DNA of 44,016 bases. Origin: a virus. The notes under the pieces are model-generated. The model had not been told where the DNA came from and did no database searches. It was given only the letters and a program-made list of their open reading frames with translations. Shown piece by piece: positions 440 through 40,728 of the stretch (position 1 is the first letter of the stretch; each line of letters begins with the position of its first letter). The DNA is taken from positions 1 to 44,016 of IMG/VR virus record IMGVR_UViG_3300038393_001495; one strand, 5' to 3'. The translations under genes were made by a program, and so were the position numbers.

Positions 440-636
440 GGCCGCATGTCCTCTCGAAGGAAGTTCAGCCCGCGGGCGAGCGCCGCGGGGTCAGGCGTGC
501 CGCCCTCGCCGAAGACCTTCGCGGCGAGGTAGGCGTCGAAGTCCACGTGCCGGAGGGCCTTCATGGACCGACGGAGGCGACGCTCCGTGATGGTGAAGCC
601 CCAGGCGGGGCCGAGGGCGCGTGCCGGGGCGCTCAC
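436..636 (-). CDS. hypothetical protein (66 aa, GTG start)
   Basis: Only the last 66 codons of track ORF 436..1485 are kept. GTG 636-634 overlaps the sigma-gene TGA (GTGA) and the stop overlaps the next ATG (ATGA). The rest of that ORF is an alternative frame of the sigma gene. Confidence 0.5.
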   Translation of the reverse strand: MSAPARALGPAWGFTITERRLRRSMKALRHVDFDAYLAAKVFGEGGTPDPAALARGLNFLREDMRP

Positions 637-1442
637 GCCGCCACCTCCAGCGCGTCGCGCATCTTCACGAGGGCGCCCGTGCGGACGCGCTGCGTCTTCG
701 GGCGGGACAGGCCCACGGACGCCGCCACGAGGGCGTCGGAGAGGGGCGCGTGGCCCTCGGGGCGCATCTCGTGACCGTCCACGACGGCGGGCTCGAAGCC
801 GTACGCCTGACGCACGACGGTCGTCTCCTCCGGCGTCGTGACGGCGAAGGCGAGGGCGACGAGTTCGGCGTCGAGGACGCTCTCGAAGGGGTCCGGGGCG
901 TCGTCGCCGTCCACGGCGTACGCGGGCGCCTCGCGGTAGTCGGTCTCGCCGTCGGCGGGGGAGGTGAGGGAGTCCGTCCGGGTCGCCGCCGTCACGGCGT
1001 CGAAGGTCGAGACCTTCATGTCGTGCTCGGGAGCAATGCGACGCGCCTCGGCGAGGTCTCCGTCGGCCTTCTTCACGATGGCGAGGTAGCGCTCCATCGT
1101 CCGCGCCGGGATGGTCCAGCCTCCCGTCCCGGAGGACGCGGCCTCGGCGAGTTCGCGGTTGAGCGCCGTCGCGACGCGGCCCGCGAGGCTCGGGTTCTTC
1201 TCCGGGTCGTGCGTCTTGATGAGGTCGAGGAAGGCGAGCGCGACCTCCTGCTCGGCGTCGTCGGCCTCCATCGTCTCGCCGTACTTCCGGAGGGCGCGGC
1301 GGATGGCGGGCGCGTACTGCTGGAGGAGCGTCTCGAAGGCGCCCGGGTGCCCGTACGCCGCCGCCGTGATGAGTTCGGCCTCGTCCTCCGGGGTCAGCGG
1401 AGCGGGCGTGGTCGTGCCAAGGATGTTCAGGATGTGAGCCAT
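633..1442 (-). CDS. phage-encoded sigma-70-family sigma factor (269 aa)
   Basis: Region-2-like FETLLQQYAPAIRRALRKY...DDAEQEVALAFLDLIKTHDP. Region-4 HTH-like EETTVVRQAYGF...LSDALVAASVGLSRPKTQRVRTGALVKMRDAL. ATG 1442 (MAHILN) chosen. Confidence 0.75.
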   Translation of the reverse strand: MAHILNILGTTTPAPLTPEDEAELITAAAYGHPGAFETLLQQYAPAIRRALRKYGETMEADDAEQEVALAFLDLIKTHDPEKNPSLAGRVATALNRELAEAASSGTGGWTIPARTMERYLAIVKKADGDLAEARRIAPEHDMKVSTFDAVTAATRTDSLTSPADGETDYREAPAYAVDGDDAPDPFESVLDAELVALAFAVTTPEETTVVRQAYGFEPAVVDGHEMRPEGHAPLSDALVAASVGLSRPKTQRVRTGALVKMRDALEVAA

Positions 1443-1627
1443 GGTGTGTTTGCGTTCCTCTCGCATACGGAAGGGCGTGCGGCATCGCCCGAGGTGGTGG
1501 CCGCGGTTGTTCCCGGGCCCCTAGGCGTGCGGAAGCGCGCCCGTGAACGGGGTCCAGGAGGAGGAGCGAGGAAGGCTGGAGGGCCCTGCTACGGCTTGCG
1601 CCGGAGGCGGTTCCTCGCTCCTCCGGA

Positions 1628-4338: not shown

Positions 4339-6798
4339 TCAGAGGATGGCGTCGAGGTCGGCGCCGGTGATGGGGGATGTGACGGAGGAATCCGCCAGAG
4401 GTGCCGCCTCTGCTCGCGGGGCCTCGGGCTCGGCGTCCGCGGCCTCGGCGGCGTCCTTCGCCGTCGCACGGCGCACGCCGTCGAAGACCATGCCCGCGGC
4501 GGCGCGGCGCTTCGTCAGCCCGCGCTCTTCGAGAGCGGCGTTGAACGTGCGCTTCGTCCAGGCGTCCGCGTCGCGGATGCCCTCGTGCTGGCACCACTCC
4601 CGATACGAGAGGTAGAGGTCGGTCGCCGAGACGCCGCGCTCCTCCTCGTCGTGGAGCCACTCGCCCGGGAGGAAGCCGTAGAGCGCATCCGAGGTCTCTC
4701 GGTAGGCGCCGACGGCGTTCTTCACGACCTCCGGGTCACGGAGCCCGCCCTCGTACCACTCGACGGCGCCACGGACCGCCCACGCGAGGATGCCCTCCGC
4801 CTCGGCGAGGAGCGTCGCGCCGAGACGCGGGTCGCGCTCGTGCGGAGCGAAGTAGCGCTCCCACGGAATGAGTTTCACTCGGCGCCAGAGGCCCTCGTCC
4901 TGCCCGCGGAACTGCGGCTTGTAGTTCGAGGCAAGCATGATGAGGAACGTCGGGCGGAACTCGAAGAACTCCTTCCGCATGAAGCGGGCGGCGATGAGGT
5001 CGCGGCCCGTGACGCGCTTCAGCATCGCCTCCGCCATCGGCTTGTTCGCCTCGCCCTCGGATGCCATGACGAGGCGGGCGCCCTTCAGCGCCGCGATGTC
5101 GTTCGGGATGCCGCCCGAGGGCTTCGCCTCGAACGTCGAGAACGGCGTCGTGACGGTCGCCTCGCGGAAGACCTCCGTAAGCGTGTCCGTGAGGACGGAC
5201 TTCCCGTTCGCGCCCTTGCCGACGTGGACCACGAAGCACTGCTCGTCCGTGCGGCCCGTGATGCCGTAGCCGACGAGGCGCCGCATGTACGCCGGAAGCG
5301 CCGGGTACTTGTCGAAGACCTCGCCGAGGAACTTCTCCCAGCGCGGCGCCTTCGCGTCCTTCCGATACACGAGGTCGATGCGCCGCGTCAGGAGGTAGGC
5401 CGGGTCGTGCGGGAGGAGGTCGCCCGTGCGGAGGTCCACGACGCCGTTCGCGCACGCGAGGAGGTCGTGGCGCTGGTCGAACTTGTCGAGCGGGGTCGCC
5501 ACGTCGCGGAGGGCCTTCACCTCGCGAATCGCCGCGTCGATGCCGCGGCTGCTCTGCGAGTAGTTCGCCCAGGCACGCCACGCCTTCGCCGCCGCCTCCT
5601 GTTCCTTCGTTACGGCGCCGACCGCCATCGTCCGGGCGATGGCCGCGGTCATCTCCGCCGCCTCCTGCGCGTAGGCGCGCGAGGCGTCGAGGTCGTCCGG
5701 GCGCCACACGCCGCCGTCGAGCACGAAGAATCCGCTCTCGGGTGCGTAGCGGAGGTCCGAGCCCTGCGAGCGGGCGTAGTCCCGAAGGAAGCGCGCGTTC
5801 CCGAGGTCGGTCAGCGGGTAGGTGGACTGGTCGCGCCCGGAGAGCGCCGCCGAGTAGGAGGACTCGACCGGCGCCTCCATGATGGCGCGCACGATGGCGC
5901 GGCCCGTCGGGTCGCTCTCGCGCCACTTCGAGAGGTCGGAGTCCTCCGGGACGGCGAGGCGCGCGACCGTGACCGAGCGCTCCGTCATGCCCTGCGCGAT
6001 GGCCGCGGAGAACTGCTGGCCCGCCCGGTCGCCGTCGCCGCACGCGATGACCTTCCGGCCCGCCGCGAACGCCGCGAGGGCGTCGAGGATGGTCGGGTTC
6101 GAGGCGTTGCCCGAGCCCGCGATGAAGAACACGTCGTAGCCGAGGGAGACGCCGGTCAGTCCGTCGCCGGGGCCCTCGGTCACGAGCACCTCGCCCCATC
6201 CCGAGGAGCCCGGGAGCGTGCCGTACTTCAGCCACGACCCGCCGCCCTCGGGGCGCTTCGGGCCCTTCCAACGGAGGTCCACGGCGGGGTCGAGGGCCCG
6301 GGCCTGATAGCCGCGCGGGTTGCCCTCCACGTCGAGGAACGGGACGACGAGGCGGGGCGTGTCAGTCTCCGAGAGGCCGAGGCCCAGGCGACGCGCCTCC
6401 TCCGCCGAGATGCCGAAGCGCCGCTCGGCGTAGTCGAGGACGGTCGAGTAGGAGGCGTCCTCCTCGGCGAGCGCGTCGGCCCAGCGGTCGAGGTCGGCGA
6501 CGAGGCCCGCGATGACCTCGGGCGCCGGGGGCGCGTCCGTCGAGGTCGCGCGGCGGGAGGCCGGAACCTTCCCGTCGATGGTCATGCTCGCGAGGTCGCG
6601 GAGGGAGAGGCCCATCTTGTCGAGCACGTCGGTCGTCTTGCATCCCGTCCGGCATCGGACGAGCACACGGTCGCCGTCCTTGCCGACCGCGACGCGGAGC
6701 GAGGGGTCCGAGTCGGAGTGCGCGGGACAGATGGCGAGCCATCCGTCGGGCTGCTCCTCCACGCCGTCGAGGCGGGCGAGGAAGGCGGAGAGGTCCAT
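4339..6798 (-). CDS. bifunctional DNA primase / D5-P4-type helicase (819 aa)
   Basis: DnaG-like zinc finger CPAHSDSDPSLRV. TOPRIM-like VTEGPGDG...CGDGDRAG. Walker A GKGANGKS and Walker B LVMASEGE. Start MDLSAF at 6798, behind an AAAGGA RBS, rather than track start 6984. Confidence 0.85.
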   Translation of the reverse strand: MDLSAFLARLDGVEEQPDGWLAICPAHSDSDPSLRVAVGKDGDRVLVRCRTGCKTTDVLDKMGLSLRDLASMTIDGKVPASRRATSTDAPPAPEVIAGLVADLDRWADALAEEDASYSTVLDYAERRFGISAEEARRLGLGLSETDTPRLVVPFLDVEGNPRGYQARALDPAVDLRWKGPKRPEGGGSWLKYGTLPGSSGWGEVLVTEGPGDGLTGVSLGYDVFFIAGSGNASNPTILDALAAFAAGRKVIACGDGDRAGQQFSAAIAQGMTERSVTVARLAVPEDSDLSKWRESDPTGRAIVRAIMEAPVESSYSAALSGRDQSTYPLTDLGNARFLRDYARSQGSDLRYAPESGFFVLDGGVWRPDDLDASRAYAQEAAEMTAAIARTMAVGAVTKEQEAAAKAWRAWANYSQSSRGIDAAIREVKALRDVATPLDKFDQRHDLLACANGVVDLRTGDLLPHDPAYLLTRRIDLVYRKDAKAPRWEKFLGEVFDKYPALPAYMRRLVGYGITGRTDEQCFVVHVGKGANGKSVLTDTLTEVFREATVTTPFSTFEAKPSGGIPNDIAALKGARLVMASEGEANKPMAEAMLKRVTGRDLIAARFMRKEFFEFRPTFLIMLASNYKPQFRGQDEGLWRRVKLIPWERYFAPHERDPRLGATLLAEAEGILAWAVRGAVEWYEGGLRDPEVVKNAVGAYRETSDALYGFLPGEWLHDEEERGVSATDLYLSYREWCQHEGIRDADAWTKRTFNAALEERGLTKRRAAAGMVFDGVRRATAKDAAEAADAEPEAPRAEAAPLADSSVTSPITGADLDAIL
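4384..4417 (-). promoter_or_regulatory. phage-specific promoter-like box PM2 (embedded in the 3' end of the primase gene)
   Basis: Minus strand: GCGAGCAGA-GGCGGCACCT-CTGGCGGATTCCTCC, 56 nt upstream of GTG 4327. Confidence 0.5.
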
Positions 6799-6830
6799 GC
6801 GGGAGAGTCCTTTCGGTCGGGTGTGACGCG

Positions 6831-6864
6831 AGAGGAATCCGCCAGTCGCGGGGGCGCTGCTCAC
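6831..6864 (-). promoter_or_regulatory. phage-specific promoter-like box PM3
   Basis: Minus strand: GTGAGCAGC-GCCCCCGCGA-CTGGCGGATTCCTCT, 32 nt upstream of ATG 6798 and directly after hairpin 6880-6908. Confidence 0.6.
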
Positions 6865-6879
6865 GCCAGAACGCACGAA

Positions 6880-7247: not shown

Positions 7248-7573
7248 CGTCGCCCGGAGCGGACGGTCGTGGAGCGGTAGGTCGTGGTCTTCGAGCGGGT
7301 GCCCGAGAACCATCCGCCCGTCTTCTGCTTGACGACGGTCTTCTCGCGGACCGTCACGGGGCGGGTGCGCTGGACGCGCGTCGGGCGGAGCGGGGTCGCC
7401 GGGTAGTAGTGACCCTGCCAGTAGCCCGAGTGGACCGGAAGGCACTGCATCCCGCGGAGGTGATACCCGGGCGGGCACGAGTCGGCGTAGTAGGTCTCGT
7501 AGCGCGGCGAGCACGCGCCGAGGGCCAGGGCGACGACCACGGCGCCGAGAGCGGCGATGGACTTGCGGATCAT
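7244..7573 (-). CDS. putative secreted lipoprotein (109 aa)
   Basis: N-terminal MIRKSIAALGAVVVALALGAC looks like a signal peptide with a lipobox-like LGAC. Confidence 0.6.
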   Translation of the reverse strand: MIRKSIAALGAVVVALALGACSPRYETYYADSCPPGYHLRGMQCLPVHSGYWQGHYYPATPLRPTRVQRTRPVTVREKTVVKQKTGGWFSGTRSKTTTYRSTTVRSGRR

Positions 7574-7592
7574 GGGGAGCCTTTCGTACGAG

Positions 7593-7628
7593 GAAGGCCC
7601 GCCCCCGGAGTAGTGGAGGCGGGCCTTC
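7593..7628 (-). terminator. GC-rich hairpin terminator/attenuator
   Basis: Perfect 11-bp stem gaaggcccgcc / ggcgggccttc. Confidence 0.55.
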
Positions 7629-7631
7629 GGG

Positions 7632-7784
7632 TCAGTCGCGGGGCGGGTAGTGGAAGTGCGCGGCGCGTGCCGCGGTGTTCTCGGCGATGAGGCGCTCGTA
7701 GGCGTCCACGGCCTCCCGCTCCCGGCGACGTGCGCCGAAGAGAGGGAGGCCGAGGAGGAGGAGCGTGCGGACGAGTCCCGTCAC
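7632..7784 (-). CDS. small membrane protein (50 aa, GTG start)
   Basis: VTGLVRTLLLLGLPLFG... has a hydrophobic N-terminus. GTGA overlap with stop 7781 of the upstream gene. Confidence 0.45.
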   Translation of the reverse strand: MTGLVRTLLLLGLPLFGARRREREAVDAYERLIAENTAARAAHFHYPPRD

Positions 7785-8440
7785 TCGGCGGCGCCGAGGA
7801 TGGAGACGACCGGCTTCGTGAAGACGTTGCCGTTCTTCATCTCGACGCGCTCCAGCGCGAGGGTCGCCTTCGCGGGGCCCTCGACCTTGCCGAGGTCGCC
7901 GATGGCCTTGCCGACGACGGTCGCGAGGCTCCACGCGCCGGACTCGAACTTCCAGAGGCCGAGGTCGGGGTCGCTCGCGAGGCGGAAGGTGATGGAGACG
8001 CGGGGCTCGCAGACGTGGCCCTGCTCCTCGTGCTCGGCGCGGTTGCGGAAGCCGCCCATCTCGCAGACGTACGGCTTGCCGTCGGTCTCGAAGACCGAGT
8101 TGTCGCAGACGACGATCTTCTTCTGACCGCGGGGCCAGATGAGCATGCGTGCGTCGATGGCGGCGGCGCCGTCGAGGATGACCTCGACCTCGCCGGAGGT
8201 CGTGAAGACCTCGATGTTCTGCTCGGTCTTGGTCTCCCACGACTGCGGACCCGCGGAGGCGCCGAGGGCCTTCGCGATGGAGTCGGCGGCGTCCGGGTCG
8301 CCGGTCGTGACGCGCCACTCGGTCAGGCTCGCGGGCGTGCCGTTCACCTGATAGCCCGAGCGGAAGTTGCCCACGATGTCGTCGGCGCCGAAGCGCTTGC
8401 CCGAGTCGGTCTGGAGGGAGGGGTCGAAGAGGTCGATCAT
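7781..8440 (-). CDS. hypothetical replication-module protein (219 aa)
   Basis: ATG 8440 (MIDLFDPS) lies behind box PM4. Track ORF 7781..8935 extends upstream through a non-coding region. No motif recognised. Confidence 0.65.
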   Translation of the reverse strand: MIDLFDPSLQTDSGKRFGADDIVGNFRSGYQVNGTPASLTEWRVTTGDPDAADSIAKALGASAGPQSWETKTEQNIEVFTTSGEVEVILDGAAAIDARMLIWPRGQKKIVVCDNSVFETDGKPYVCEMGGFRNRAEHEEQGHVCEPRVSITFRLASDPDLGLWKFESGAWSLATVVGKAIGDLGKVEGPAKATLALERVEMKNGNVFTKPVVSILGAAE

Positions 8441-8489
8441 GCGGAGTGTTCTCACTTTCAAGAGGCGGTAATGCCCGCGGTGGGGCAAG

Positions 8490-8523
8490 AGAGGAATCCG
8501 CCAGTCGTGCTCGCGCTGCTCGG
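8490..8523 (-). promoter_or_regulatory. phage-specific promoter-like box PM4
   Basis: Minus strand: CCGAGCAGC-GCGAGCACGA-CTGGCGGATTCCTCT, 49 nt upstream of ATG 8440 and after hairpin 8540-8570. Confidence 0.55.
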
Positions 8524-8539
8524 GGCCAGGAACGCCGAA

Positions 8540-8570
8540 GGGCCCCCACCTCGCGAGGAGGTGAGGGCCC
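8540..8570 (-). terminator. GC-rich hairpin terminator
   Basis: Arms gggcccccacctc / gaggtgagggccc (one mismatch), right after stop 8578. Confidence 0.5.
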
Positions 8571-8577
8571 TTGTGGG

Positions 8578-8976
8578 TCAGGCGGAAGCGAACGTGCCGG
8601 GTGGCCTCGTGAGGGCCGGACCCGGGAACGAGACGCGGTTCTCCAGCCCCTCGCGCCGGAACGCGAGCCCGCCGAGAATGTCGCCGATCTTCGAGGAGCG
8701 ACGGGCGCCCATGTGGGGCAGGAGCGCCCGCATGATGTCCGCCGCGCGGTCGCCGGAGACCTCCGCGTGGAAGGTCGTCTTGTGGACCTTCGAGATGGTC
8801 ATGCGGATGCGCGAGCCCATGAGGGTTGCCGCGCGACCCACCACGTCCCGGTCGGTCATGCCGACGCGGATGCGCGGGTACTTCCCGCGGTGGAGGTCGA
8901 ACGTGCCCTCGCCTTCGAGGAGGCCCGCGAGCCACACGAGGTCGGACTCGCCGATGACGAACGGACCGTGCTTCAT
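8578..8976 (-). CDS. free-standing single-motif LAGLIDADG homing endonuclease (132 aa)
   Basis: DLVWLAGLLEGEGTFDL matches the LAGLIDADG motif context. ATG 8976 forms an ATGA overlap with the upstream gene. Confidence 0.7.
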   Translation of the reverse strand: MKHGPFVIGESDLVWLAGLLEGEGTFDLHRGKYPRIRVGMTDRDVVGRAATLMGSRIRMTISKVHKTTFHAEVSGDRAADIMRALLPHMGARRSSKIGDILGGLAFRREGLENRVSFPGPALTRPPGTFASA

Positions 8977-9170
8977 CGGGCCACTCCGTCCATCGAGCGG
9001 TTCCAGCGGACCGTCCGGTAGCCGTCCGGATGCGCCGGGTCGTCCTCGAAGCGAGCGAACGAGGCGACGTTCGTCATCGTGTCGAGGAAGGCGTCGTCCC
9101 ACGGCTCGGCGTTCGGGAGGTCGCGGAGGCGGGCCTCCTCCTCCGGCGTGAGGTTGCGGTAGCGCGTCAT
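8973..9170 (-). CDS. hypothetical protein (65 aa)
   Basis: ATGA overlaps at both ends (9167-9170, 8973-8976). It is the tail of track ORF 8973..10184. Confidence 0.5.
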   Translation of the reverse strand: MTRYRNLTPEEEARLRDLPNAEPWDDAFLDTMTNVASFARFEDDPAHPDGYRTVRWNRSMDGVAR

Positions 9171-10087
9171 GACGCCTTCGCCTTCGCGCGCGCCTTCGGC
9201 TGGTTGATGGGCCCTCTCTGCTGCCCGGGCTTGAACTCGCCGCCCGCCGCGACGGGCTTCCCGATGACGCGCTTCTTCACCTCGGAGTCCCAATCGAGGA
9301 CTTCGCGGAGGGCGAGGAAGTAGTCGAAGACATCGACCTCGTGGCCCGGGACCACCACGTCGCCGGTCGGCTCGTGGACGACGGGCTCGGCGAGGGTGAC
9401 CGTGCCGACCTCGACCGGGACGAGTTTCCAGCCCTCGGGGCGGACGAGGAGGACGGCGCCGCCCTCGGCCTTCGGGAGCGGGACGCGGGAGCCGTCCGGG
9501 CGGACGATGTGCGTCGCACGCGAGTACGCACAGAGTTGGAGCGCGACCTCCTCGTGGACGCCGGACCGGGTGGTCTTCCAGTCCATGAAGAGGAGTTTCC
9601 CCTTCAGGTCGCCCACGTCGCCGGTCAGGCGGGCCAGGGCGTCGAACGAGCCCGCGTAGCCGAACTCGTCGGACCAAACGGTCTCTTCGAGGAAGACGAA
9701 CTCGGGCTTCGCGATGTCGAGGAACTCGCGGAAGTGCTCGATGTACGGCTTCAGGTTCGGCGTGATGCGCGGGTTCTCGCCCTTCGCGATCTGCTCGAAG
9801 GCGTCGTGCGCCTCGGAGCCGACATCGGCGGAGTTCGACGTGAAGCGGCGCGGGGCGCCCTTCAGGAGTTCGACGGCTGCCTTCGGGTCGCGCATCGCGA
9901 TACCGACGACATCGCCCATGTTCTCGACGGCGTACTCGGCGACCATCTTCGCCGCCCAGAACGTGAGGAACGGCTTCGGGAGCATGTTCAGGACGGAGGT
10001 CACGCCGGGGTTCTTCCGGCCCGTGTCGGGGTTCACGTAGAACCGTGAGCCACCTCGGGAGATGGTGGAGACCTTCGGAGTGGTCAT
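9167..10087 (-). CDS. PD-(D/E)XK exonuclease (Cas4/RecB-like, 306 aa)
   Basis: GYAGSFDAL ... LFMDWKTT ... QLCAY fits the D / (D/E)xK / QxxxY nuclease motif set. Confidence 0.65.
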   Translation of the reverse strand: MTTPKVSTISRGGSRFYVNPDTGRKNPGVTSVLNMLPKPFLTFWAAKMVAEYAVENMGDVVGIAMRDPKAAVELLKGAPRRFTSNSADVGSEAHDAFEQIAKGENPRITPNLKPYIEHFREFLDIAKPEFVFLEETVWSDEFGYAGSFDALARLTGDVGDLKGKLLFMDWKTTRSGVHEEVALQLCAYSRATHIVRPDGSRVPLPKAEGGAVLLVRPEGWKLVPVEVGTVTLAEPVVHEPTGDVVVPGHEVDVFDYFLALREVLDWDSEVKKRVIGKPVAAGGEFKPGQQRGPINQPKARAKAKAS

Positions 10088-10117
10088 TTGGGGGTTCCTT
10101 TCCTGTCAGGGGACAGG

Positions 10118-10151
10118 AGAGGAATCCGCCAGTAGAGCCAGGGCGGCTCAG
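10118..10151 (-). promoter_or_regulatory. phage-specific promoter-like box PM5 (5' box overlaps stop codon 10148-10150)
   Basis: Minus strand: CTGAGCCGC-CCTGGCTCTA-CTGGCGGATTCCTCT, 30 nt upstream of ATG 10087. Confidence 0.55.
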
Positions 10152-14783: not shown

Positions 14784-14789
14784 GGCAGG

Positions 14790-14819
14790 AGTGTAAACGC
14801 GCCGTGGCACGCTTCGCAA
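14790..14819 (-). promoter_or_regulatory. host-type early promoter PE-14.8 (TTGCGA-N18-TACACT)
   Basis: Minus strand: TTGCGA AGCGTGCCACGGCGCGTT TACACT. Member of a five-copy family. Confidence 0.65.
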
Positions 14820-14883
14820 GTGAAGACGCGAAGAGGCCCCCAAGCGTCGCCGGATGGCGGGCTCGGGGGCCGGATGCGGGGCG

Positions 14884-14991
14884 GGTGTGTAGGAAGTGCA
14901 GGTTCTTCCTACATCTCCTATTCCTGTCTAGAGAGAGAGCGCCTAGAGAGGAAATAGAGAATGTAGGTAGTTCCTGCACTTCCTACACGGG
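14884..14991. repeat. 108-bp AT-rich palindromic element, copy A
   Basis: 97/108 identical to 37894..38001 by hand alignment. Perfect 16-bp outer inverted repeat gtgtaggaagtgcagg / cctgcacttcctacac. Starts 1 nt after stop 14992. Confidence 0.9.
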
Positions 14992-15219
14992 TCACTCCTC
15001 GGCGCCGGTCTCCTCGCTCGGCGTCACGTGCGCCGCGGCGAGGACGAGGGCCAGGAAGTCGAGGACGTGCCCGATGTGGGCGACGATGGCGGCGACCTGC
15101 GACTCCGAGGCGAAGCCGAAGCCCGTCGCGACGGCGCCGACCGTGCCGAGGAAGAGGTAGAGCGCGCGGCGCATCTCCGGGGAGAGGAACGCCGAGACGC
15201 GGCGGAGGAAGGCGAGCAT
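14992..15219 (-). CDS. holin-like membrane protein (75 aa)
   Basis: Two hydrophobic segments (LYLFLGTVGAVATGFGF, VLDFLALVLAAA) and an acidic tail. Last gene of the lysis cassette. Confidence 0.55.
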   Translation of the reverse strand: MLAFLRRVSAFLSPEMRRALYLFLGTVGAVATGFGFASESQVAAIVAHIGHVLDFLALVLAAAHVTPSEETGAEE

Positions 15220-18880: not shown

Positions 18881-21697
18881 TCAGAGCGTGGTGGAAGAGA
18901 CGACGGGCTCCTCGTAGTCGATGCCGGACATGGACCACGACACGGAGCGGACCGAGCCGACTCCGAGGCCGGAGATGCGGACCGGCGCCATCGAGACGAA
19001 GAGGCGGTTCCCGTCCGGGTCGCGGAAGCACGCGGGCGAGTAGGACAGGGCGAAGCGCGAGATGTCCTGCCACGACGAGGACTCCGCGGCCCGCTCCTGC
19101 GAGCGGTCCGGGCGCCAGAGCGTCGCGGACACGGAGACCTCCGTCGAGACCTGCTGCCCGTCGAACGGGACCGGGTAGTCGCGCCCCGCGGCGCGGCGAA
19201 GCGCACGCGAGCGGCCCTGCGTGAGGTCCACGGCGACGTTCGAGTTCACGCGCACGAAGTCGCCGAAGCCAGGGCCCGCGTTCACGAAGAGGTGCTTCAC
19301 GCCGGACGTGAAGACCTCGACCGGCGCGGACTCGCCGAACGCACCCATCGCCGTCTCCACGACCGCCTTGTAGCGGTTCGAGGCGTTCAGCGCCGGGATG
19401 GCGTCCGTGACGGCGAAGGTGCTCGGCTGCGCCTGCGTGCCCGCGAAGTAGGAACCGAGGGTGTCGCTCTGCTCCACCATCGCGGCGTCCACGTCGTAAG
19501 TCGCATTGACCGGCACGCCGCCCGAGGTGGGCTTCAGCACGGCGAAGAGGCGGACGAGCGTCGCGGTAGCGGGCGCCGTGTCCGTCACGGCGATGCGGCG
19601 CCACTCGCCCGCGGGAACGCCCGAGACGACGGTGTGCGCGCTCGTCGTCAGGAAGGCGCCGCCCGCGTACCACTGGAGCCAAACGTCCATCGTGGAAGTA
19701 GCGCCGAGCGCCGCCGAGCCGCGGAGCGAGAGCGAGCCCGTCCAGACCTCGCCGGGATTGACCGTCGCCGAGGGCGCCGTCCACACGTAGTTCCCTGCCG
19801 CCACGGAGGCATCCGTGGACGTGTAGCGGAGCACGTAGCCGCCATCGACCGCGGTCGCATCGGCGACGCGCGCGATGGTGCCGCGAGTGCCCGCCCATCC
19901 CGTCGCGTCCGTCTCGAACGAGGGGTTCGTGACGATGTTCACGCGGGACGGGAGCGGGGTCGGAACGATGTCGTCGGCGATGAGCGCCCACGGTCCGCCG
20001 TCGATGGACCGCCAGACCTCGGCGGTGTCCACGGGCACCTCGACGCCGGACGGGACCGGGACCGTGACGTAGACCGACGAGGACGCGGACTCGACATCGA
20101 ACTCGGCGGACACGACCGGCGTCGGGAGGACCGCGAAGTCCACGGTGAAGGCCACGGAGTCCGCGGCGGACCACAGTCCCGTCGAGTCGCGCACGACGAC
20201 ATCGACGGAGTACGCGCCGCCGTCGGCGACCCGAGTCGCGAAGCGGACGGATGTCGTGCTGTCAGCCCCGGCGAGGGACTCCAGCACGGAGCCGTCGCCT
20301 GCGTAGAGCGTCGCCTTCCACGCGGTCTGAACCTGTCCCTCGGCGTCGCCGTAGGTCCAGTCCAGGCGGACACGCGCCGAGTCCCACGGCGTCGCCTCGG
20401 TCGGGCCCGTGATGGTCGCGACGGGTCGCGTGGACAGGGTGAGCGTGCCGGACGCGGACCACGCCGAGGCGGTCGCGTGCTGGCCCCACGTGCGGACCTG
20501 CCACTCGATTGTCTGCCCGTTCGTCCACGTGTTCGCCGCGAAGAGTCGCGAGGACGCGGTGGACGTGACCTTGCCCGTCGAGGTCCACGTCGTCGTCGCG
20601 ACCGGGCGCCATTGAATCTCGTAGGCGGACTGGTCGGTCGTGTCGAGCGGGTTGTGGGTCCAGACGAAGAGGGCGGTCTCCGCGGCCTCCTGCGCCACGC
20701 CGGACGGAGACAGTCCGGTCGGCGCCGAGGGCGGCGTCAGGGGCGTGACGCCGACCGATGTCGCGCCGTTCGCCGAGTAGAGCGTCGGCACGCTCGACAC
20801 GGCGCGGAGGCGGTAGGTGTGCGTCTGCGTCGAGTTCGGCGCGACATGCGTCCACGAGGTCGTCCCGTACGCGACGAGGGCGAGACGCGCTGCGTCCCAC
20901 ACGCCGTTCGCCGCGTGCCAGACCTCCCAGCCTCCGGTCGAGACCGGAGACAGGGTAGGCCGGGTCACGGTGATGTCGCCCGAGGTCGTCTTCTTGACCG
21001 TGGGCGCCCCGGGTGCGGCGGGGGTCGTGGAGATGTTGGGGGCGTAGGCGTAGGCCGAGTAGCCGCCCGTGTTCTTCGCGCGGACGGCGTACGTGTAAAC
21101 GCGGTCCGCGCGTGTCTTCGTGTCCGTCCACGAGGTCGTCGTCCCGGTGACCGTCGCGACCGCGACGAGCGAGGTCGAGATGTTGTCCTTGCGGTAGACG
21201 ATCTGCTGGTCATACGGCGCCGAGGATGTCGCCTGTCGCGACCACGAGACCTTCTGCGAGGTGTCGGAGATGCGAGAGGTCGAGAGGGAGATGGGCGGGG
21301 CCGGAGCCGCGACGGCGAGTTTCGGGACCGTGAACGTGGTCGAGACCGTGGCCTCGGTTCCCGGGTACGCCGCGTAGGACTTGACGCGGACCGAAGCGGC
21401 CTTCGCCTGCGTCGAGGTCGTGAGCGTGACCGTCGTCGTGGTCGTGCCCATGAGTTTGTAGCCCATCGCGGACAGGCTCCAGTCCGTGTTACCGGAGCCG
21501 TCCGTGACGCCCGAGCCCGTGATGTACCACGTGCTGCCCGAGGAGTATTCGCTCGATGCGTAGCGCGTCTGGAGGTACGCCTTCGTCGTGAGCGTGACCT
21601 TCGTCGTACTCGCCGTGATGGTGCTCGGCGACATGACGACCTCGACTCCCGCCCGGAGGCGGTTGTTCGAGGACCATGCGCCCCACGAGATAGCCAT
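18881..21697 (-). CDS. large minor tail protein (distal-tail-like) with FN3-like repeats and a carbohydrate-binding-like insert (938 aa)
   Basis: Several W..V...T.Y.Y.V.A FN3-like units. NPSFETDATGW-type segment. Position directly after the tape measure gene. Confidence 0.65.
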   Translation of the reverse strand: MAISWGAWSSNNRLRAGVEVVMSPSTITASTTKVTLTTKAYLQTRYASSEYSSGSTWYITGSGVTDGSGNTDWSLSAMGYKLMGTTTTTVTLTTSTQAKAASVRVKSYAAYPGTEATVSTTFTVPKLAVAAPAPPISLSTSRISDTSQKVSWSRQATSSAPYDQQIVYRKDNISTSLVAVATVTGTTTSWTDTKTRADRVYTYAVRAKNTGGYSAYAYAPNISTTPAAPGAPTVKKTTSGDITVTRPTLSPVSTGGWEVWHAANGVWDAARLALVAYGTTSWTHVAPNSTQTHTYRLRAVSSVPTLYSANGATSVGVTPLTPPSAPTGLSPSGVAQEAAETALFVWTHNPLDTTDQSAYEIQWRPVATTTWTSTGKVTSTASSRLFAANTWTNGQTIEWQVRTWGQHATASAWSASGTLTLSTRPVATITGPTEATPWDSARVRLDWTYGDAEGQVQTAWKATLYAGDGSVLESLAGADSTTSVRFATRVADGGAYSVDVVVRDSTGLWSAADSVAFTVDFAVLPTPVVSAEFDVESASSSVYVTVPVPSGVEVPVDTAEVWRSIDGGPWALIADDIVPTPLPSRVNIVTNPSFETDATGWAGTRGTIARVADATAVDGGYVLRYTSTDASVAAGNYVWTAPSATVNPGEVWTGSLSLRGSAALGATSTMDVWLQWYAGGAFLTTSAHTVVSGVPAGEWRRIAVTDTAPATATLVRLFAVLKPTSGGVPVNATYDVDAAMVEQSDTLGSYFAGTQAQPSTFAVTDAIPALNASNRYKAVVETAMGAFGESAPVEVFTSGVKHLFVNAGPGFGDFVRVNSNVAVDLTQGRSRALRRAAGRDYPVPFDGQQVSTEVSVSATLWRPDRSQERAAESSSWQDISRFALSYSPACFRDPDGNRLFVSMAPVRISGLGVGSVRSVSWSMSGIDYEEPVVSSTTL

Positions 21698-21717
21698 GCG
21701 TGAGACCTCCTAGGGGG

Positions 21718-24468
21718 TCAGATACGGGCCCGGGCGTCGAGGCGAGCGAGCCGCGCGTTCTGCGCGAGGCCACGCTCGACGGCGCCGGGAATGGAGTGGA
21801 GAGAACGGAGTTCGCCCGCGAGGGCCAGGAGCGCCGAGGCGATGGCCTCCGAGTCGCCGGAGCCGCCGCCCTGCCCGAGGGCCCCGAGGCGCTTCCCGGT
21901 CTCCTCCCAGATGGCGAGCGAGCGGTCGCGCTTCGCCGGGTGGAGCGGGATGTACGCCTCGCCCCCGGTCTCGGGCTCGGCCCAGAGGCGCATAGCCCCC
22001 GCGGGGGCGATCTGCGCGACGTGGTTCTCCGAGCCGTTCGCGAAGGCGGTCACGCCTCCGTTCGCGTAGGCGGTGATGCCGCCGTTCGCGTAGGCGTCGT
22101 CCGGGTTCTGAAGGTTGCCAGCGAGTTTCGCCGTGTTCTGGAGGCGCTGCTTGACCGTGATGGTGACGGTCTTCGACCGAATCGCCGCCATCGTGTCCTT
22201 CAGGAGTTGCGCTCGGCGCTGCGCGGTCTCCGAGGCCAGGTCCACGTTCGTCTTGATGGACTTCGGAATCTGGAGGTACTTGTCGATGAGCCGCTGCGCC
22301 TCGGCCTTCGTGAGCCCCGCCTGACGCATCGAGTCATAGAGGGCCTTCCGGCCCGCCTCGATGACGCCGTTCGCCTTCACGTTGGAGCCCGTGGCCTTCT
22401 GGACCTCGGACGCCTCGCGGAGTTTCGCCTCGGCGTAGGAGCGCACGGAGTCGCGAGCGGCGAGCGCCTTGTCGGAGTTGCCCTTCAGGTTGCCGTTCGA
22501 CTCGCGGACCGCCTTGTTCGCTTCCTTCAGGCGCTTTGTGGCGGCGTCGTGCGCGCCCTCCAGCGAGAGGGTCTGCGTGATAGCGGCGTCCGCGGCGGTC
22601 TTCCACGCTTCGAGCGCGGCCTTCTGCTCCTCGATGTAGTCCGTCGCCGTGTAAACCCTCCCGGCGTAGTCGCCCTGCGCCCGGGAGCCCTCGGCCACAA
22701 CCTCGTTGTGCTGCTGCTGCGCGACCTTCGCGTTCTTCAGCGCCTCGCCGGAGTCGCCGACGTTGTTCTTGAACTTCAGGTAGGCGACGTTGAGGTCCGT
22801 CATCGTGGAGGCGTCGGCCTGATCGGCGTTCACCTTCGCGAGTTGCGCCTTCATCGCGGCGTCGTGCGCGGGCTCGATCTTCGCGAGCGCGTCGCCGTAC
22901 CCGAGGTAGGCGTCCACGACATCGTTCGTCGAGAGGCCGAGCATCCTGCCCTGCTCGATGGCGCCCTCGTCCTGCGCCTTCTTCAGCGCGACGAGGCGCA
23001 CGTTCTCCGTGATGGCGCCGTTCGACTCGATGAGGGCGTCCGTGTAGTTCGAGGTCGCCGTCGCGACCGCCTGATTCCGCTCGGCGAACGCCGAGTAGAC
23101 GGCGGTCGCCGCGCCGATGGCAATCGAGATGATGCCCATAGACGCCTGAAGGCCACGCGCCCCGCGGCTCGCGGTCTCCATGCCCGCGCCCGCGGCTGCT
23201 GCCGAGGTGGCGGTCTTCTGGAAGAACGTCGGGATGAACGAGAGCGCGCGGTAGGCCACGAACGCCGTGTAGGCCGAGCCCGCCGCGACCGCGACGACCT
23301 GAAGGATGGTCGGGTCAATCGCGTTGATGGCCGAGGCGATTCCGTTCAGCGCGTCGAGGACGACGCCGCCGAGCGGCGAGGCTGCGGCGGCGATGTTGCC
23401 GACCGCCATCACGAGGGACTCGACCGTCGAGATGACCGACGGGAGGACGCCCGCCACGTAGTCCACGAAGGACTTGAAGCCCTCGCCCTGCGCGCCATCG
23501 TTCAGGCGGCGGGAGAGGTCCACGACGTACGCCGCGACCTCGCGGATGACCGGGCGGAACGTCTCGAAGGCGGTCAGGGCGGCGTCGATGAGGTTCGTCG
23601 CGCTCTGCCCGAGGTAGGTCGTCATCTCCGAGAGGAGCGGCGTCAGGGCGCCAGTGTGGGACTTCAGCGTCGCGATGATCTGCGTCAGCGAGCCGAAGAA
23701 CGCCTCGGCGCCCGAGTGCGTGATGCCGTCGAGGACGCCCTTCGCGTCATCGAGCGCGGACTTGTAGCGGAGCCCGAGGGAGGTTCCCTCCTCCATCTCG
23801 CGCTTGATGCCGAGGACGGCGAGCACGCCCGCCGCGCCCATCGCGCCGAAGCCCGCCGCGAGACCGACGGCGGCGGCGCCGACCGGGGCGATGGCAGGGC
23901 CGAGAATGCCGATGGCGGCGGCGAGCGGGTTGATGCCCTTCGTCTCGGCGTCCTTCGAGGAGCGCTCGATCTTCTTCGCAGCGGCCTCGGCCTCGGCGCC
24001 CGCCCGCGCCATGTCGTCGGCGAGGGCCTTCTCGGCGTCCGAGGCTTCGCGAGCCGCGGCCTCCAGGTTGCGCCGGGCGACCGTGACGGCGCGCTCGGCA
24101 GACAGGACCGAGGACGCCTTCGCCTTGCCGTTCTCGCGGACCTCGGCGAGGCGCGTCTCCGCGATAACGAGGCGGTCGTTCGCGTCCCGCACCTTGTCCG
24201 ACGCCTCCGACATCGCCGCGCCCATGCGGTCGAAGTCGCGGCTCGATGTCGTCGCCGTGACGTGGAGCGCGCGCCCCGCGCGGTCGGCCTCTTCGCCGAC
24301 GGCGCGGAGGCGAGCGACTGCCTCCTCCGCGTTCACGTCGATGTCGATGTCCGGGGACTTGCCATCGAGGGCCTCCGCCGCGACGCCCGCGCGGCGGAGT
24401 TCCTCGTGCCACTGCGTCGCGTCCAGGCGGAGGTAACCGACGAGGGTTCCTGCGGTCGCTTCACTCAT
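21718..24468 (-). CDS. tape measure protein (916 aa)
   Basis: Length, Ala/Gly-rich helical sequence with central hydrophobic segments, and position after the chaperone pair. Confidence 0.85.
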   Translation of the reverse strand: MSEATAGTLVGYLRLDATQWHEELRRAGVAAEALDGKSPDIDIDVNAEEAVARLRAVGEEADRAGRALHVTATTSSRDFDRMGAAMSEASDKVRDANDRLVIAETRLAEVRENGKAKASSVLSAERAVTVARRNLEAAAREASDAEKALADDMARAGAEAEAAAKKIERSSKDAETKGINPLAAAIGILGPAIAPVGAAAVGLAAGFGAMGAAGVLAVLGIKREMEEGTSLGLRYKSALDDAKGVLDGITHSGAEAFFGSLTQIIATLKSHTGALTPLLSEMTTYLGQSATNLIDAALTAFETFRPVIREVAAYVVDLSRRLNDGAQGEGFKSFVDYVAGVLPSVISTVESLVMAVGNIAAAASPLGGVVLDALNGIASAINAIDPTILQVVAVAAGSAYTAFVAYRALSFIPTFFQKTATSAAAAGAGMETASRGARGLQASMGIISIAIGAATAVYSAFAERNQAVATATSNYTDALIESNGAITENVRLVALKKAQDEGAIEQGRMLGLSTNDVVDAYLGYGDALAKIEPAHDAAMKAQLAKVNADQADASTMTDLNVAYLKFKNNVGDSGEALKNAKVAQQQHNEVVAEGSRAQGDYAGRVYTATDYIEEQKAALEAWKTAADAAITQTLSLEGAHDAATKRLKEANKAVRESNGNLKGNSDKALAARDSVRSYAEAKLREASEVQKATGSNVKANGVIEAGRKALYDSMRQAGLTKAEAQRLIDKYLQIPKSIKTNVDLASETAQRRAQLLKDTMAAIRSKTVTITVKQRLQNTAKLAGNLQNPDDAYANGGITAYANGGVTAFANGSENHVAQIAPAGAMRLWAEPETGGEAYIPLHPAKRDRSLAIWEETGKRLGALGQGGGSGDSEAIASALLALAGELRSLHSIPGAVERGLAQNARLARLDARARI

Positions 24469-35405: not shown

Positions 35406-35638
35406 GGCACGCGACGACAGGCGGAACAGACGCGCCGGAGACCATCGGCCTCCCGCGAGTCGAGGTGGAACTCGCTCGTGGGCTTCGCGACGCCGCACGA
35501 GGCGCACGTCTTCCGCACGCCCCGAGTCCAGGCCCGCCTACGGGCCAGGGCGGCGCCGAGGAGCGCCTCCACGCCCTCCGGGTCGCCGTCAGGATGACGG
35601 GTCGCCAGAGAGGCGCGGAGGCGGTCCTCCAGGCTCAC
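35402..35638 (-). CDS. zinc-ribbon protein (78 aa, GTG start)
   Basis: KTCASCGVAKPTSEFHLDSREADGLRRVCSACRR gives CxxC-x24-CxxC. GTGA overlap with stop 35635 of the repeat protein. Confidence 0.55.
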   Translation of the reverse strand: MSLEDRLRASLATRHPDGDPEGVEALLGAALARRRAWTRGVRKTCASCGVAKPTSEFHLDSREADGLRRVCSACRRVP

Positions 35639-37847: not shown

Positions 37848-37877
37848 AGTGTAAACGCGCGGTGGCACGGCGCACAA
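37848..37877 (-). promoter_or_regulatory. host-type early promoter PE-37.8 (TTGTGC-N18-TACACT)
   Basis: Minus strand: TTGTGC GCCGTGCCACCGCGCGTT TACACT. Confidence 0.6.
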
Positions 37878-37893
37878 GTCGGCGGCGCGGCGT

Positions 37894-38001
37894 GGTGTGT
37901 AGGAAGTGCAGGAAGTTCCTACATTCCCTATTCCGTACTAGAGAGAGAGTCCCTAGAGAGGTAATAGAGAATGTAGGTAGTTCCTGCACTTCCTACACGG
38001 G
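37894..38001. repeat. 108-bp AT-rich palindromic element, copy B
   Basis: 97/108 identical to 14884..14991. Ends 7 nt after the integrase stop codon (38009-38011) and lies 16 nt upstream of the -35 of PE-37.8. Confidence 0.9.
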
Positions 38002-38008: not shown

Positions 38009-39655
38009 CTACGGGGTCGTCTCCGGCGCTCCTCCGGCGTTGTGGCGCCGGGGTCCAGCGGGCGAGGTGCCGCCCGGAGGGTTCACCCAATGGATGAGCA
38101 CGCGCTCGCCCGGGTAGAAACGGGCCCCACGAGAGGGCGCACGGGTGACCGTCACGCGCTCGATGGCGAGACCGAGGAGGGCGCGACGTTCCTCGACGGG
38201 CAGGGCCTCCCATGCCTCGCGGCTCTGTGTCATGTCGAGGAGGGGCGTCATGTCGCCCTCAGGGCCCGGGAGCGTCGCGAGAGATGCTCGGGCCTCGGCT
38301 ACCCGGGCCCGGAGCGTCGGGAGGCGCTGCGCCGCCTCGTCCTTCGTCATGAGCCCCGAGGCCATGAGGTCCAGGACGCGGGCGAGGTCCGCCTCGAAGC
38401 GCGCGAGCACCTCCGCGAGGCGGTTCCGCTCCGTCGCCGCCGCGGGGTCCACGCGCGCCGCCCATCGACGGGCCACTTCGGCGAGGAGTTCGACGCGGTG
38501 CGGGTCTTCGGCCTCGTCCTCCGGGTCGATGGCGAGGCGGCGGAGGAAGGCGTCCACCACGGCATCGTCGGTCCGCCGCTCGGGCGCGTTGAAGCCGTCG
38601 CACGTCGTCCCGGCGCCCCGGGAAGCGCACGAGTAGGAGCGGTGCCCGAGGCGGTTCCCGTTCACGCGCGCGATGCGCCCACACGAGGCGCATCGGATGA
38701 GGCCGCGGAGGAGCGTCGAGGGCCCGCCGCCCGTGCCGCCCCGGGCGCCGTGACCGCGCTCGCCCCGCCTCTCGTCGTGGAGGGCCAGGACGCGGGCGCG
38801 CTCGGCCTCCGTGATGACGCCCGCGCCGACGGAGACCGGGAGGCCCTCCTCGTTCAGGTAGACATCGGCGACGTTCGCCCATCCGCCCGAGGGCGTCTTG
38901 CGCCGGAGCGACTGTAGTCCCGCGAAGCCCGGGGCCTTCAGGAGTTCGCGGATGGACGACGCCCGCCACTCGCCGCCTCGGGACGCCTTCACGCCCTCGA
39001 CGTTCAGCGTCCGGGCGATGGAGTAGGGCGAGATGCCGTCGAGGGCCATCTCGGCGATGCGCCGCGCGAGGGCGTACGTCTCCGGGTCGTGCTCCAGCCG
39101 ACCGTCCTCCGCGCGCCGGAGCCCGAGCGGCGGTTTCCCGCTCTGCCAGCGCCCCGCCTCGCGGGCGTAGCGGCGGGCGCGGGAGACGCGCTCGGAGAGT
39201 TTCTCGGCCTCCTCCCGGGCGACCTCGGCTCGGACGATGAGGGACAGGCGGGCGCGCTCGTCGCCCGTGTCCGTGCCGTCCACGCCGAGGACGCGGCGGT
39301 TCTTCCCGACGTGCCGCTCGGCGAGTTCGCCCGCCTCCACGGCGCCCTTGCGCGTCGCGCGGTCGAGGCTCCAGACGATGAGCGTGCGGAAGTCCTCGCC
39401 GCCGTCGAGGTCGCGGAGGGCCTCCTCCCAGACCGGGCGGGCCTTGCGGGAGTGGCGGCTCGCGCCCGTGCCCTCGCGCTCCGCGTAAACTCGGGTGACC
39501 TCCAGCCCGACGCGGGCGGCGAGGGCTCGGCAGTCGGCCTCCTGCTCACGCATCGAGCGCCCGAGGCGGTGCGTGTCCTTCGCGTTCTTGTGCGAGCGGC
39601 GAACGTAGATGGCGGCGGCGGAGTCCGGCGAGGCCGGGAGCGGTGAGAGCGTCAT
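38009..39655 (-). CDS. int: large serine recombinase (integrase, 548 aa)
   Basis: N-terminal resolvase-type catalytic region AAIYVRRSHKN...REQEADCRALA...LIVWSLDRATRKG. Long C-terminal domain with a Cys cluster CASCG...SYSCASRG...C. Confidence 0.85.
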   Translation of the reverse strand: MTLSPLPASPDSAAAIYVRRSHKNAKDTHRLGRSMREQEADCRALAARVGLEVTRVYAEREGTGASRHSRKARPVWEEALRDLDGGEDFRTLIVWSLDRATRKGAVEAGELAERHVGKNRRVLGVDGTDTGDERARLSLIVRAEVAREEAEKLSERVSRARRYAREAGRWQSGKPPLGLRRAEDGRLEHDPETYALARRIAEMALDGISPYSIARTLNVEGVKASRGGEWRASSIRELLKAPGFAGLQSLRRKTPSGGWANVADVYLNEEGLPVSVGAGVITEAERARVLALHDERRGERGHGARGGTGGGPSTLLRGLIRCASCGRIARVNGNRLGHRSYSCASRGAGTTCDGFNAPERRTDDAVVDAFLRRLAIDPEDEAEDPHRVELLAEVARRWAARVDPAAATERNRLAEVLARFEADLARVLDLMASGLMTKDEAAQRLPTLRARVAEARASLATLPGPEGDMTPLLDMTQSREAWEALPVEERRALLGLAIERVTVTRAPSRGARFYPGERVLIHWVNPPGGTSPAGPRRHNAGGAPETTP

Positions 39656-39677: not shown

Positions 39678-39715
39678 CGTTAGGGGCGGGACTTCTGGAA
39701 ACTCCGCCCCTAACG
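39678..39715. other. perfect 12-bp inverted repeat with 14-bp centre; candidate attP core (or hairpin terminator)
   Basis: cgttaggggcgg-gacttctggaaact-ccgcccctaacg, 23 nt upstream of the int ATG. Confidence 0.4.
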
Positions 39716-40438: not shown

Positions 40439-40464
40439 CACGGCGCATACCTCTAGACGCCGTG
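40439..40464. promoter_or_regulatory. inverted repeat CACGGCG-N12-CGCCGTG in the divergent intergenic region (operator candidate)
   Basis: Same 7-bp half-site as the palindrome in the early-promoter spacers. The centre contains TCTAGA. Confidence 0.4.
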
Positions 40465-40527
40465 TGGAGCGGGCCTCGCGGGGGTATGAGGAACCGCTCG
40501 GGGCAAACAGTACGGGAGGGGTCAGAC

Positions 40528-40728
40528 ATGGTTGAACGCGGCACGAAGCGACGGAACGGGCCGGTCTCGACCGTCGGACGGAGACTCACGGCGCACGGGC
40601 TGGACCTCCTGCCCGTCGAGGTGCGAGAGCGCGTCGAGGCCGAACTCGCCCGAGGCGGTCGCGAGGCGTGGGTCATGGCGCCGGACGACGGGCGCGTCTA
40701 CGTGGAGATACGCAACGCGAAGGCGTGA
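40528..40728 (+). CDS. only convincing plus-strand gene: small basic protein (66 aa), regulator candidate
   Basis: GGGAGGGG RBS lies 6 nt before ATG 40528. Divergent from the membrane-protein/int unit. Ends at the convergent terminator. Confidence 0.6.
   Translation: MVERGTKRRNGPVSTVGRRLTAHGLDLLPVEVRERVEAELARGGREAWVMAPDDGRVYVEIRNAKA

Follow-up and report, generated by a model that had tools for sequence, protein, structure and literature searches.

Twin AT-rich palindromes bordering the early block of a temperate actinophage as candidate replication origins for its SF3 primase-helicase

The IMG/VR record IMGVR_UViG_3300038393_001495, analyzed here over its full 44,016 nt (the window), is a circular ~43.9-kb temperate actinophage that carries two 108-bp AT-rich palindromes, element A (copy A) and element B (copy B; Table 1). 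We propose, with moderate confidence, that these elements are twin replication origins, or an origin and a partner resembling crr of phage P4, for the superfamily 3 (SF3) primase-helicase that the phage encodes. A replication origin was missing from the roles listed in the original prediction—an earlier reading of this DNA that offered paired operators, an RNase III or sib-like hairpin, an insulator or terminator, and a miniature mobile element—and now fits best.

Architecture and setting of the two elements

Elements A and B are direct repeats that align without gaps at 97 of 108 positions, as originally predicted; realignment shortens the identical stretch that had been placed at their right end from 47 to 39 nt, position 69 being mismatched. 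Both elements are far AT-richer than the genome (G+C 0.49 in A and 0.48 in B, against 0.71 for the window), and both have a perfect 16-bp outer inverted repeat (GTGTAGGAAGTGCAGG / CCTGCACTTCCTACAC) separated by 70 nt, two further points on which the earlier description holds. Taken over their full 36 nt, the arms are 83% complementary in A and 92% in B, making the elements near-perfect palindromes around a 30-nt center. The 11 differences between the copies preserve the left-arm palindrome in part: TTC against AAG turns a 9-N8-9 arrangement into 8-N10-8.

Each arm holds three hexamers (TGTAGG, TGCAGG, and the inverted CCTACA), giving six per element, and the two arms oppose each other across an AT-rich center (CTAGAGAGAGAG...CCTAGAGAGG) with a (CT)n tract. 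The four TGTAGG/CCTACA half-sites form local palindromes, as had been noted, and these are specific to the elements: TGTAGG-N14-CCTACA occurs exactly four times in the window, twice per element, against an expectation of 0.26, and none of 100 shuffles reached four.

The first and last 127 bases of the window are identical (1–127 and 43890–44016), which points to a circularized assembly with a k-mer overlap rather than a biological terminal repeat and leaves a genome of ~43,889 bp. Codon-position G+C assigns nearly every gene to the minus strand. Followed in coding direction, the map begins with small genes carrying three copies of a promoter-like motif, an SprT-like gene, the candidate phage attachment site (attP), the serine integrase gene (int), and element B. 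A further promoter-like motif, two genes, and tRNA-Trp (the sole match of an Rfam search) precede the terminase, portal, capsid, tail, lysis, and holin genes. Element A, a G+C-rich hairpin, and another promoter-like motif follow, with genes for a deoxynucleoside monophosphate kinase, ribonucleotide reductase, exonuclease, and HNH protein; the map ends with a protein resembling recombination directionality factors, RusA, the primase-helicase (6864->4339), DNA polymerase I, and a sigma-like protein. On this minus-strand reading, the earlier placement of A directly after the last lysis gene and of B 7 nt after int is correct. The copies bracket the late block, as had been claimed, with the terminase, portal, capsid, tail, and lysis genes between them, and they also mark both ends of the block with replication, regulation, and int genes. 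They lie 23,010 nt apart in the window, or 21–23 kb apart on the circle.

Table 1. Coordinates of the elements and associated features in the window
Feature	Position	Strand	Description
Element A	14884..14991		108-bp AT-rich palindrome; DNA hairpins on either strand, -32 to -33 kcal/mol
Element A, left hexamers	TGTAGG 14888-14893, TGCAGG 14897-14902, CCTACA 14908-14913	+	
Element A, center	14914-14961		AT-rich, (CT)n/(AG)n tract
Element A, right hexamers	TGTAGG 14962-14967, CCTGCA 14973-14978, CCTACA 14982-14987	+	
Element B	37894..38001		Direct-repeat copy, 97/108 vs A; int-side orthologues in L001, L002, L033
Element B, hexamers	37898-37903, 37907-37912, 37918-37923, 37972-37977, 37983-37988, 37992-37997		
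Holin gene	14992..15219	-	PF23809, phrog_565; final gene of structural/lysis block; stop 14992-14994 abuts element A
G+C-rich hairpin	14835..14871	-	GGCCCCC...GGGGGCC just downstream of element A, then TCTTCGCGTCTTC; conserved in relatives
Promoter-like motif downstream of element A	14789..14822	-	TTGCGA-N18-TACACT with CCGTG-G-CACGG
Promoter-like motif downstream of element B	37849..37882	-	~13 nt from element B; precedes gene 37800->37498
Large serine integrase (recombinase) gene	38009..39655	-	548 aa; stop 7 nt from element B
Candidate attP core	39679..39714	-	GTTAGGGGCGGA-GTTTCCAGAAG-TCCCGCCCCTAAC; 36-bp palindrome just upstream of int
Primase-helicase gene	4339..6864	-	P4 family, 841 aa, phrog_6088; proposed initiator

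This layout resembles the origins of Staphylococcus aureus pathogenicity islands (SaPIs). SaPI origins contain 6–12 iterons of five or six nucleotides, split equally between the two flanks of an AT-rich region; each flank has two or more, and the two sets point in opposite directions. The origins directly follow rep and are bound by the self-loading SF3 protein Rep through its C-terminal winged-helix domain, and a hexamer is probably loaded on either flank (PMC9371898). Elements A and B share the opposed sets of short iterons (six hexanucleotides per element), halved around an AT-rich center, and an iteron sequence specific to the element. The window, like SaPIs, also encodes a fused primase and SF3 helicase, an initiator of the Rep/PriRep/P4-alpha type. 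The domains of this protein are Toprim (residues 225–311), D5_N (357–517), the SF3 helicase domain DUF5906 (548–662), and a P4-type C-terminal domain; it scores 250 bits against TIGR01613 (cut-off 108.7), and its best match in the PDB is PriRep5 of SaPI5 (7OLA, E 3.4e-8), in an alignment that extends to residue 731 of the 797-residue chain. The elements differ from SaPI origins in that the window and its high-G+C relatives have two copies per genome, neither beside the primase-helicase gene, and in being near-perfect ~100-nt palindromes with a TTCYCTATT/AATAGRGAA inner motif and a (CT)n tract.

On the origin reading, TGTAGG, TGCAGG, CCTACA, and their inverted partners would act as iterons that set initiator-helicase complexes in opposite orientation on both flanks of the AT-rich center. 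The center would melt, the helicase would load itself, and its fused primase would start synthesis; the second copy would be an equivalent origin or a distant cis-acting partner like P4 crr. The architecture, its conservation, the phage-specific hexamers, the P4-family initiator, and the SF3 adjacency in other viruses (below) are observed; binding of the primase-helicase, melting at the elements, and firing of both copies are what we infer.

The element family in other phages

Four IMG/VR contigs from close relatives carry the element at both equivalent places, and the holin-side and int-side copies retain their own small differences across these relatives (GAA against CTT, in the 3′ arm). The element is better conserved than adjoining genes: in the relative L022, the holin has 70% protein identity and the element few differences. 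With the window's primase-helicase as a probe for the wider family, we collected 33 viral loci at 44–66% primase identity plus two of the window's own lineage. Nearly all have one or two AT-rich palindromes of 90–120 nt with the same layout: two or three direct hexamers at an 8–9-nt period, often followed by an inverted hexamer; TTCYCTATT; a center of ~25–30 nt in which a (CT)n or (AG)n tract accompanies a small CTAG/TTAA palindrome; then AATAGRGAA and the inverted hexamers. Counted per arm, relatives have 2–4 hexamers at that period. The primase family is represented in some 230 phage records.

The hexamer differs by phage. It is TGTAGG in the window lineage and in the locus L043, GTGACG in most phages, and ATGACG, GGGACG, GTGAAG, or GTGCAG in others, and within one genome its type is common to all sites of both copies. 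Copies within a genome are 75–94% identical (mean 85%), against a mean of 52% and a maximum of 67% between genomes.

Both the pair and its placement are conserved in phiC31-like, Arthrobacter AZ, and Microbacterium EH phages. The twin arrangement is found in three cultured phages, DrManhattan, Cen1621, and phiC31, and in at least seven IMG/VR genomes; their primases are only ~50–56% identical to that of the window (the primase-helicase is gp37 in DrManhattan and gp9a in phiC31). In each case the two copies flank the block formed by the replication, sigma-like, SprT-like, and int genes. Of the two DrManhattan copies (~19.7 and 35.85 kb), one separates gp24 from the exonuclease gene and the other follows the serine integrase gene by ~145 nt; in Cen1621 they are found directly after gp24 and ~100 nt after int. 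In phiC31 (L189, NC_001978) they occupy 21664–21760, in the gap between gp54 and the exonuclease gene gp1, and 40445–40545, after int. The phiC31 copies have GTGATG/GTGACG/GTGACT repeats at an 8-nt period and a shared center, ATTCCTAATGACTTCTC; the record has no annotation at either.

An integrated relative separates the hexamer from the integrase. In L033, a contig from a metagenome-assembled genome of Oryzihumus sp. (NZ_DASVZH010000287.1), an integrase 83% identical to that of the window is followed by the orthologous element, with host genes on both sides. The outer half-sites of this element are GTGACG, CGTCAC, GTGAAG, and CGTCAC, replacing TGTAGG/CCTACA around a retained center, which reads as a coordinated change to the GTGACG type (three exact, one GTGAAG). 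Because the half-sites have changed beside so similar an integrase, the hexamer does not follow int, and we rejected the integrase as its reader.

The same locus places attP. Homology between L033 and the window starts at 39694, the center of the candidate attP palindrome, so attP lies upstream of int; on the other side of the insertion, the phage brings in a 5′ part that restores a thioredoxin-like host gene. Whether the phage is free or integrated, element B thus remains linked to int, and a role for the element as the serine-integrase attP is rejected, the crossover mapping to the separate palindrome. The insertion itself (L033 ~7450–9800) is a 2.3-kb remnant with no more than a serine integrase gene, one element, a promoter-like motif, and a short open reading frame (ORF). 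The thioredoxin-like gene into which it is inserted has two copies of its 5′ part, of which the left-junction copy is truncated and the right-junction copy rebuilt. Either extensive deletion of a prophage or a minimal integrative element made of int and an origin could account for the remnant.

In other viruses, the same architecture recurs next to SF3 genes. The GTGACG version of the pattern (GTGACGNNGTGAC-N60-90-GTCACNNCGTCAC) is present in at least 120 viral stretches, from which 80 loci with G+C of 38–72% are listed. An SF3 primase/helicase ORF lies within 400 nt in 25 of the 80 listed GTGACG-type loci, mostly 13–170 nt away; among the listed loci below 61% G+C, the corresponding counts are 19 of 26 within 400 nt and 20 of 26 within 464 nt. 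In the high-G+C listed loci, the element either precedes an exonuclease gene or follows a serine integrase gene. The SF3-type neighbors are of several kinds by Pfam: DUF5906, VapE-like, DUF927 with Cch HTH_56, BT4734_N with PriCT_1, and D5_N with Pox_D5. Adjacency to an initiator gene, absent from the window, also occurs for the window's own arm motif: in L005, an AT-rich stretch right after a homologous P4-like primase, 32% identical to that of the window, holds GTGTAGG-AAG-TGCAGG...CCTGCA-CCCTACAC and further GTGTAGG/CCCTACAC repeats.

Alternative roles and points against an origin

The elements could instead act as RNA, forming 3′-end hairpins of the int and late transcripts for termination, insulation, or RNase III cutting; we consider this unlikely. 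Their positions immediately after the holin and int stop codons would suit it, and their sense RNA folds into ~40-bp hairpins, predicted to contain 42 and 40 pairs; z-scores are -10.6 and -11.8 for the folds with flanks, and the energy is about -59 to -65 kcal/mol for the element alone. In an integrated prophage, moreover, int would be the first gene after attL, and a barrier that keeps transcription from running on into the late genes would be of use there. The sense strand has no advantage, however: the coding-strand fold is the more stable in 14 of 39 elements and the antisense fold in 25, a G-U signature of sense RNA is absent across the same 39, and both DNA strands fold equally well (-32 to -35 kcal/mol). 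Sense-strand RNA structure was rejected as the conserved feature on the missing G-U asymmetry. The ~40-bp stem is AT-rich and has no T-run, and a scan for intrinsic terminators (G+C-rich stem-loop with a U-tract) found none at either element, whereas copy A has a separate G+C-rich hairpin after it (14835–14871) that looks terminator-like. A hairpin would also need neither internal direct hexamers nor matching copies within a genome.

Orientation gives a further argument. Of 10 genomes, 8 have their two copies as direct repeats, and the center is flipped relative to transcription in several phages. The central ~40 nt or the whole element is mutually inverted between copies in L042, L044, and Cen1621 (L190), and in L036, L056, and L059 the (CT)n tract lies on the noncoding strand with the arms unchanged. 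Either the center flips in evolution or whole elements sit in either orientation. Given these flips and the lack of strand bias, the function of the element looks, on sequence evidence, orientation-independent and exerted at the DNA level.

Retroregulation of the sib type requires attP to lie between int and the hairpin. Like lambda sib and the RNase III sites of T7, the elements have a long hairpin just past int and at gene boundaries, but they differ in the position of attP, in having no strand bias, and in a repeat architecture that such sites leave unexplained. With attP upstream of int and element B retained beside int after integration, the sib-like role originally suggested is excluded.

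A second alternative keeps the function on DNA: the elements would be binding arrays for another phage-specific protein (a repressor, sigma-like protein, or regulator) that marks or loops the early–late boundaries and controls adjacent promoters. Phage-specific hexamers common to both copies agree with this, as does the location of both copies just upstream of conserved promoter-like motifs, and cluster AZ phages have no known immunity repressor (bioRxiv 10.1101/2025.05.26.655371). The motif concerned, TTGYG-N-CGTGCCAC-N3-GCGTTTACACTC, has five members in the window, the two in Table 1 and those at 41600–41632, 42318–42350, and 43186–43218, all on the minus strand. It has a -35/-10-like pair matching 8 of 12 consensus positions and an embedded CCGTG-G-CACGG palindrome, which may be an operator, and each copy lies upstream of a start codon. 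After element A, the -10-like hexamer is followed 8 nt later by an ATG at 14783, so this motif would be predicted to yield a nearly leaderless mRNA. The original prediction placed a promoter after each copy. A shared promoter-like motif does follow both, but a strict sigma-70 scan did not call it, and its promoter status is for that reason something we only infer. A promoter inside the element was rejected for want of a consensus match.

Several observations make such an array improbable. The distance to the motif varies, from ~13 nt at B to ~64 nt with an intervening hairpin at A; all five motifs have their own palindrome, and three have no element nearby. The twin elements of phiC31 differ from the operators of its c-repressor, the CIR palindromes (CCTACTCACGTGAGTAGG). 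This last difference and the separate palindrome of the window's motifs speak against an immunity-operator role; of the earlier idea of a paired operator set, paired protein-binding sites survive, since they fit hexamers that change together in both copies. A regulator array would, in addition, leave the SF3 adjacency in other viruses unexplained.

Relatives have a different promoter-like motif after copy A, another point against the array. This is the second five-copy motif of the window, GTGAGCAGC-N~13-CTGGCGGATTCCTC (coding strand), located at 2065–2136, 4360–4431, 6807–6878, 8479–8521, and 10107–10149 on the minus strand. It is confined to the replication-gene block, each copy upstream of a gene, and in L008, L022, and L031 it takes the place of the first motif after element A. 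This motif could be a promoter class for the phage's sigma-like protein.

A selfish miniature inverted-repeat element, or a recombination site of the serine integrase or another recombinase, is a very improbable third account. Terminal inverted repeats and two direct copies recall such elements, and the 26-bp local palindromes, if parsed as 12-2-12 sites centered on AG/CT, resemble invertase crossover sites. The flanks show no target-site duplications, and the two-arm pattern has zero matches in 185,579 bacterial and archaeal species genomes and in metagenome contigs; copies in viral contigs occur at syntenic positions only, in all relatives. The lack of target duplications and of genomic copies, and the synteny, give the mobile-element option of the original prediction no support. 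Nor does a recombination site fit: attP maps elsewhere, hexamer type is independent of the integrase, no small invertase gene was found, and recombination between direct copies would split the genome. A blastn search with the 108-bp unit against 50,697 phage records found no match.

Several results weigh against the origin reading itself. In the window and the other high-G+C phages, neither copy is beside the primase gene; the copies lie ~8 kb upstream of it and ~10 kb downstream through the circle, unlike in SaPIs, and it is unusual to need two origins. Whatever the hexamer, the inner motif TTCYCTATT...AATAGRGAA is retained across phages, and it has no assigned partner. The C-terminal winged helix is not confirmed: the Pox_D5 match is weak (18.6 bits, below the 21.4 cut-off), and the C-terminal 169 aa of the primase alone have no sequence match in the PDB. 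Finally, the operon-end position and the strong RNA hairpin mean that a role in termination or processing could coexist with origin function.

No clear co-variation between hexamer and initiator emerged. The tests comprised sliding-window identities over eight proteins, nearest-neighbor comparison of five primase regions, diagnostic columns, and primases beside their own element. None of the five primase regions sorts cleanly by hexamer type. Fifteen diagnostic columns are found only in the window lineage and the otherwise distant L043, all of them in primase residues 337–454 (within D5_N; window 5473–5856), against 0–4 scattered columns in controls. Several of these residues recur in primases beside GTGACG elements, and GTGACG-type elements occur with two different variants of residues 337–454. 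The 118-residue cluster more probably marks a mosaic segment that the two lineages share than a determinant of specificity. An Lsr2-like bridging protein was rejected as a partner: it is encoded in Cen1621 and has no homologue in the window, DrManhattan, or phiC31.

Other genes of the early block and its surroundings were noted in passing. The sigma-factor-like protein (633–1466, minus strand; phrog_351) has a weak Sigma70_r2 match, and the homologue of SprT-like proteases (41677–42339, minus strand) is the most conserved nonreplication protein among relatives (58–68% identity); a cluster AZ preprint discusses sigma-like and SprT-like proteins as possible lysogeny regulators (bioRxiv 10.1101/2025.05.26.655371). 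The replication block also encodes, at 7781–8488 on the minus strand, a homologue of the gp3-type recombination directionality factor of phiC31 (PF18897). According to the same preprint, this factor is kept even where relatives have no integrase (bioRxiv 10.1101/2025.05.26.655371), which hints at a second role. Soon after element B, a 571-aa protein (35635–37350, minus strand) consists of repeated ~70-aa modules with a GDRV motif and weakly matches the C-terminal domain of nitrile hydratase beta; it is 48% identical in L002 and highly variable among close relatives.

Comparison with known origins and implications

Satellite phage P4 replicates with two sites, ori and crr, bound by its alpha primase-helicase; the two have unlike structures, with crr made of two tandem 120-bp repeats, and lie ~4.5 kb apart. 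The window shares with P4 an initiator of the TIGR01613 family and two separated sites with the same short repeats. It differs in that its sites are equivalent palindromes, 90% identical and 21–23 kb apart, so the structurally distinct second site of P4 has no counterpart: A and B have the same architecture. Palindromic origins are also known in eukaryotic viruses, at the core origin of SV40 and other polyomaviruses and the E1 sites of papillomaviruses (SF3), and at oriS and oriL of herpes simplex virus (superfamily 2 UL9). There, inverted arrays of 5–6-nt sites flank an AT-rich segment, which suits head-to-head loading of a double hexamer, and herpes simplex virus has several palindromic origin copies between transcription units. 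The elements have no sequence similarity to these origins, and hosts and proteins are unrelated save for the SF3 fold.

A wider version of the origin reading treats the pair as a conserved two-origin system, in which matched, distant iteron palindromes bracket the early/lysogeny block of phiC31-like, AZ-type, and EH-type actinophages and double as barriers between transcription units. We put this forward tentatively and regard it as rather unlikely. Complexes at the two sites would then either pair across ~20 kb, as an ori with a crr-like enhancer and domain boundary, or fire together and amplify one arc first. The L033 remnant suggests one more possibility, that cassettes of int and an origin persist as minimal integrative elements, which a helper phage with the matching hexamer could replicate.

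As a kind of element, an origin of iterons and an AT-rich region for a self-loading SF3 helicase is already known. Apparently new are the conserved pair of matched, fully palindromic copies that border the early block at a large distance from the initiator gene, and the occurrence of the element in phiC31 and hundreds of actinophages, for neither of which did we find a description in the literature. Literature searches on repeat sequences and on phiC31 origins or iterons found nothing relevant and no mapped replication origin of phiC31-like and related actinophages; the comparative paper on cluster AZ mentions repeat sequences solely as data not shown.

Hundreds of phiC31-like and related phages have been sequenced from Arthrobacter, Microbacterium, Curtobacterium, and Streptomyces, and phiC31 is widely used as a genetic tool. 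If the elements are origins, they supply precise, testable origin coordinates in the cultured phages phiC31, DrManhattan, and Cen1621, and the SaPI/P4 model of a self-loading SF3 initiator would extend to a large group of temperate phages. Two matched origins in a single 40–45-kb genome would be an unusual arrangement. The phage-specific hexamers would then define replication specificity groups, relevant to co-infection, exploitation by satellites, and vector design.

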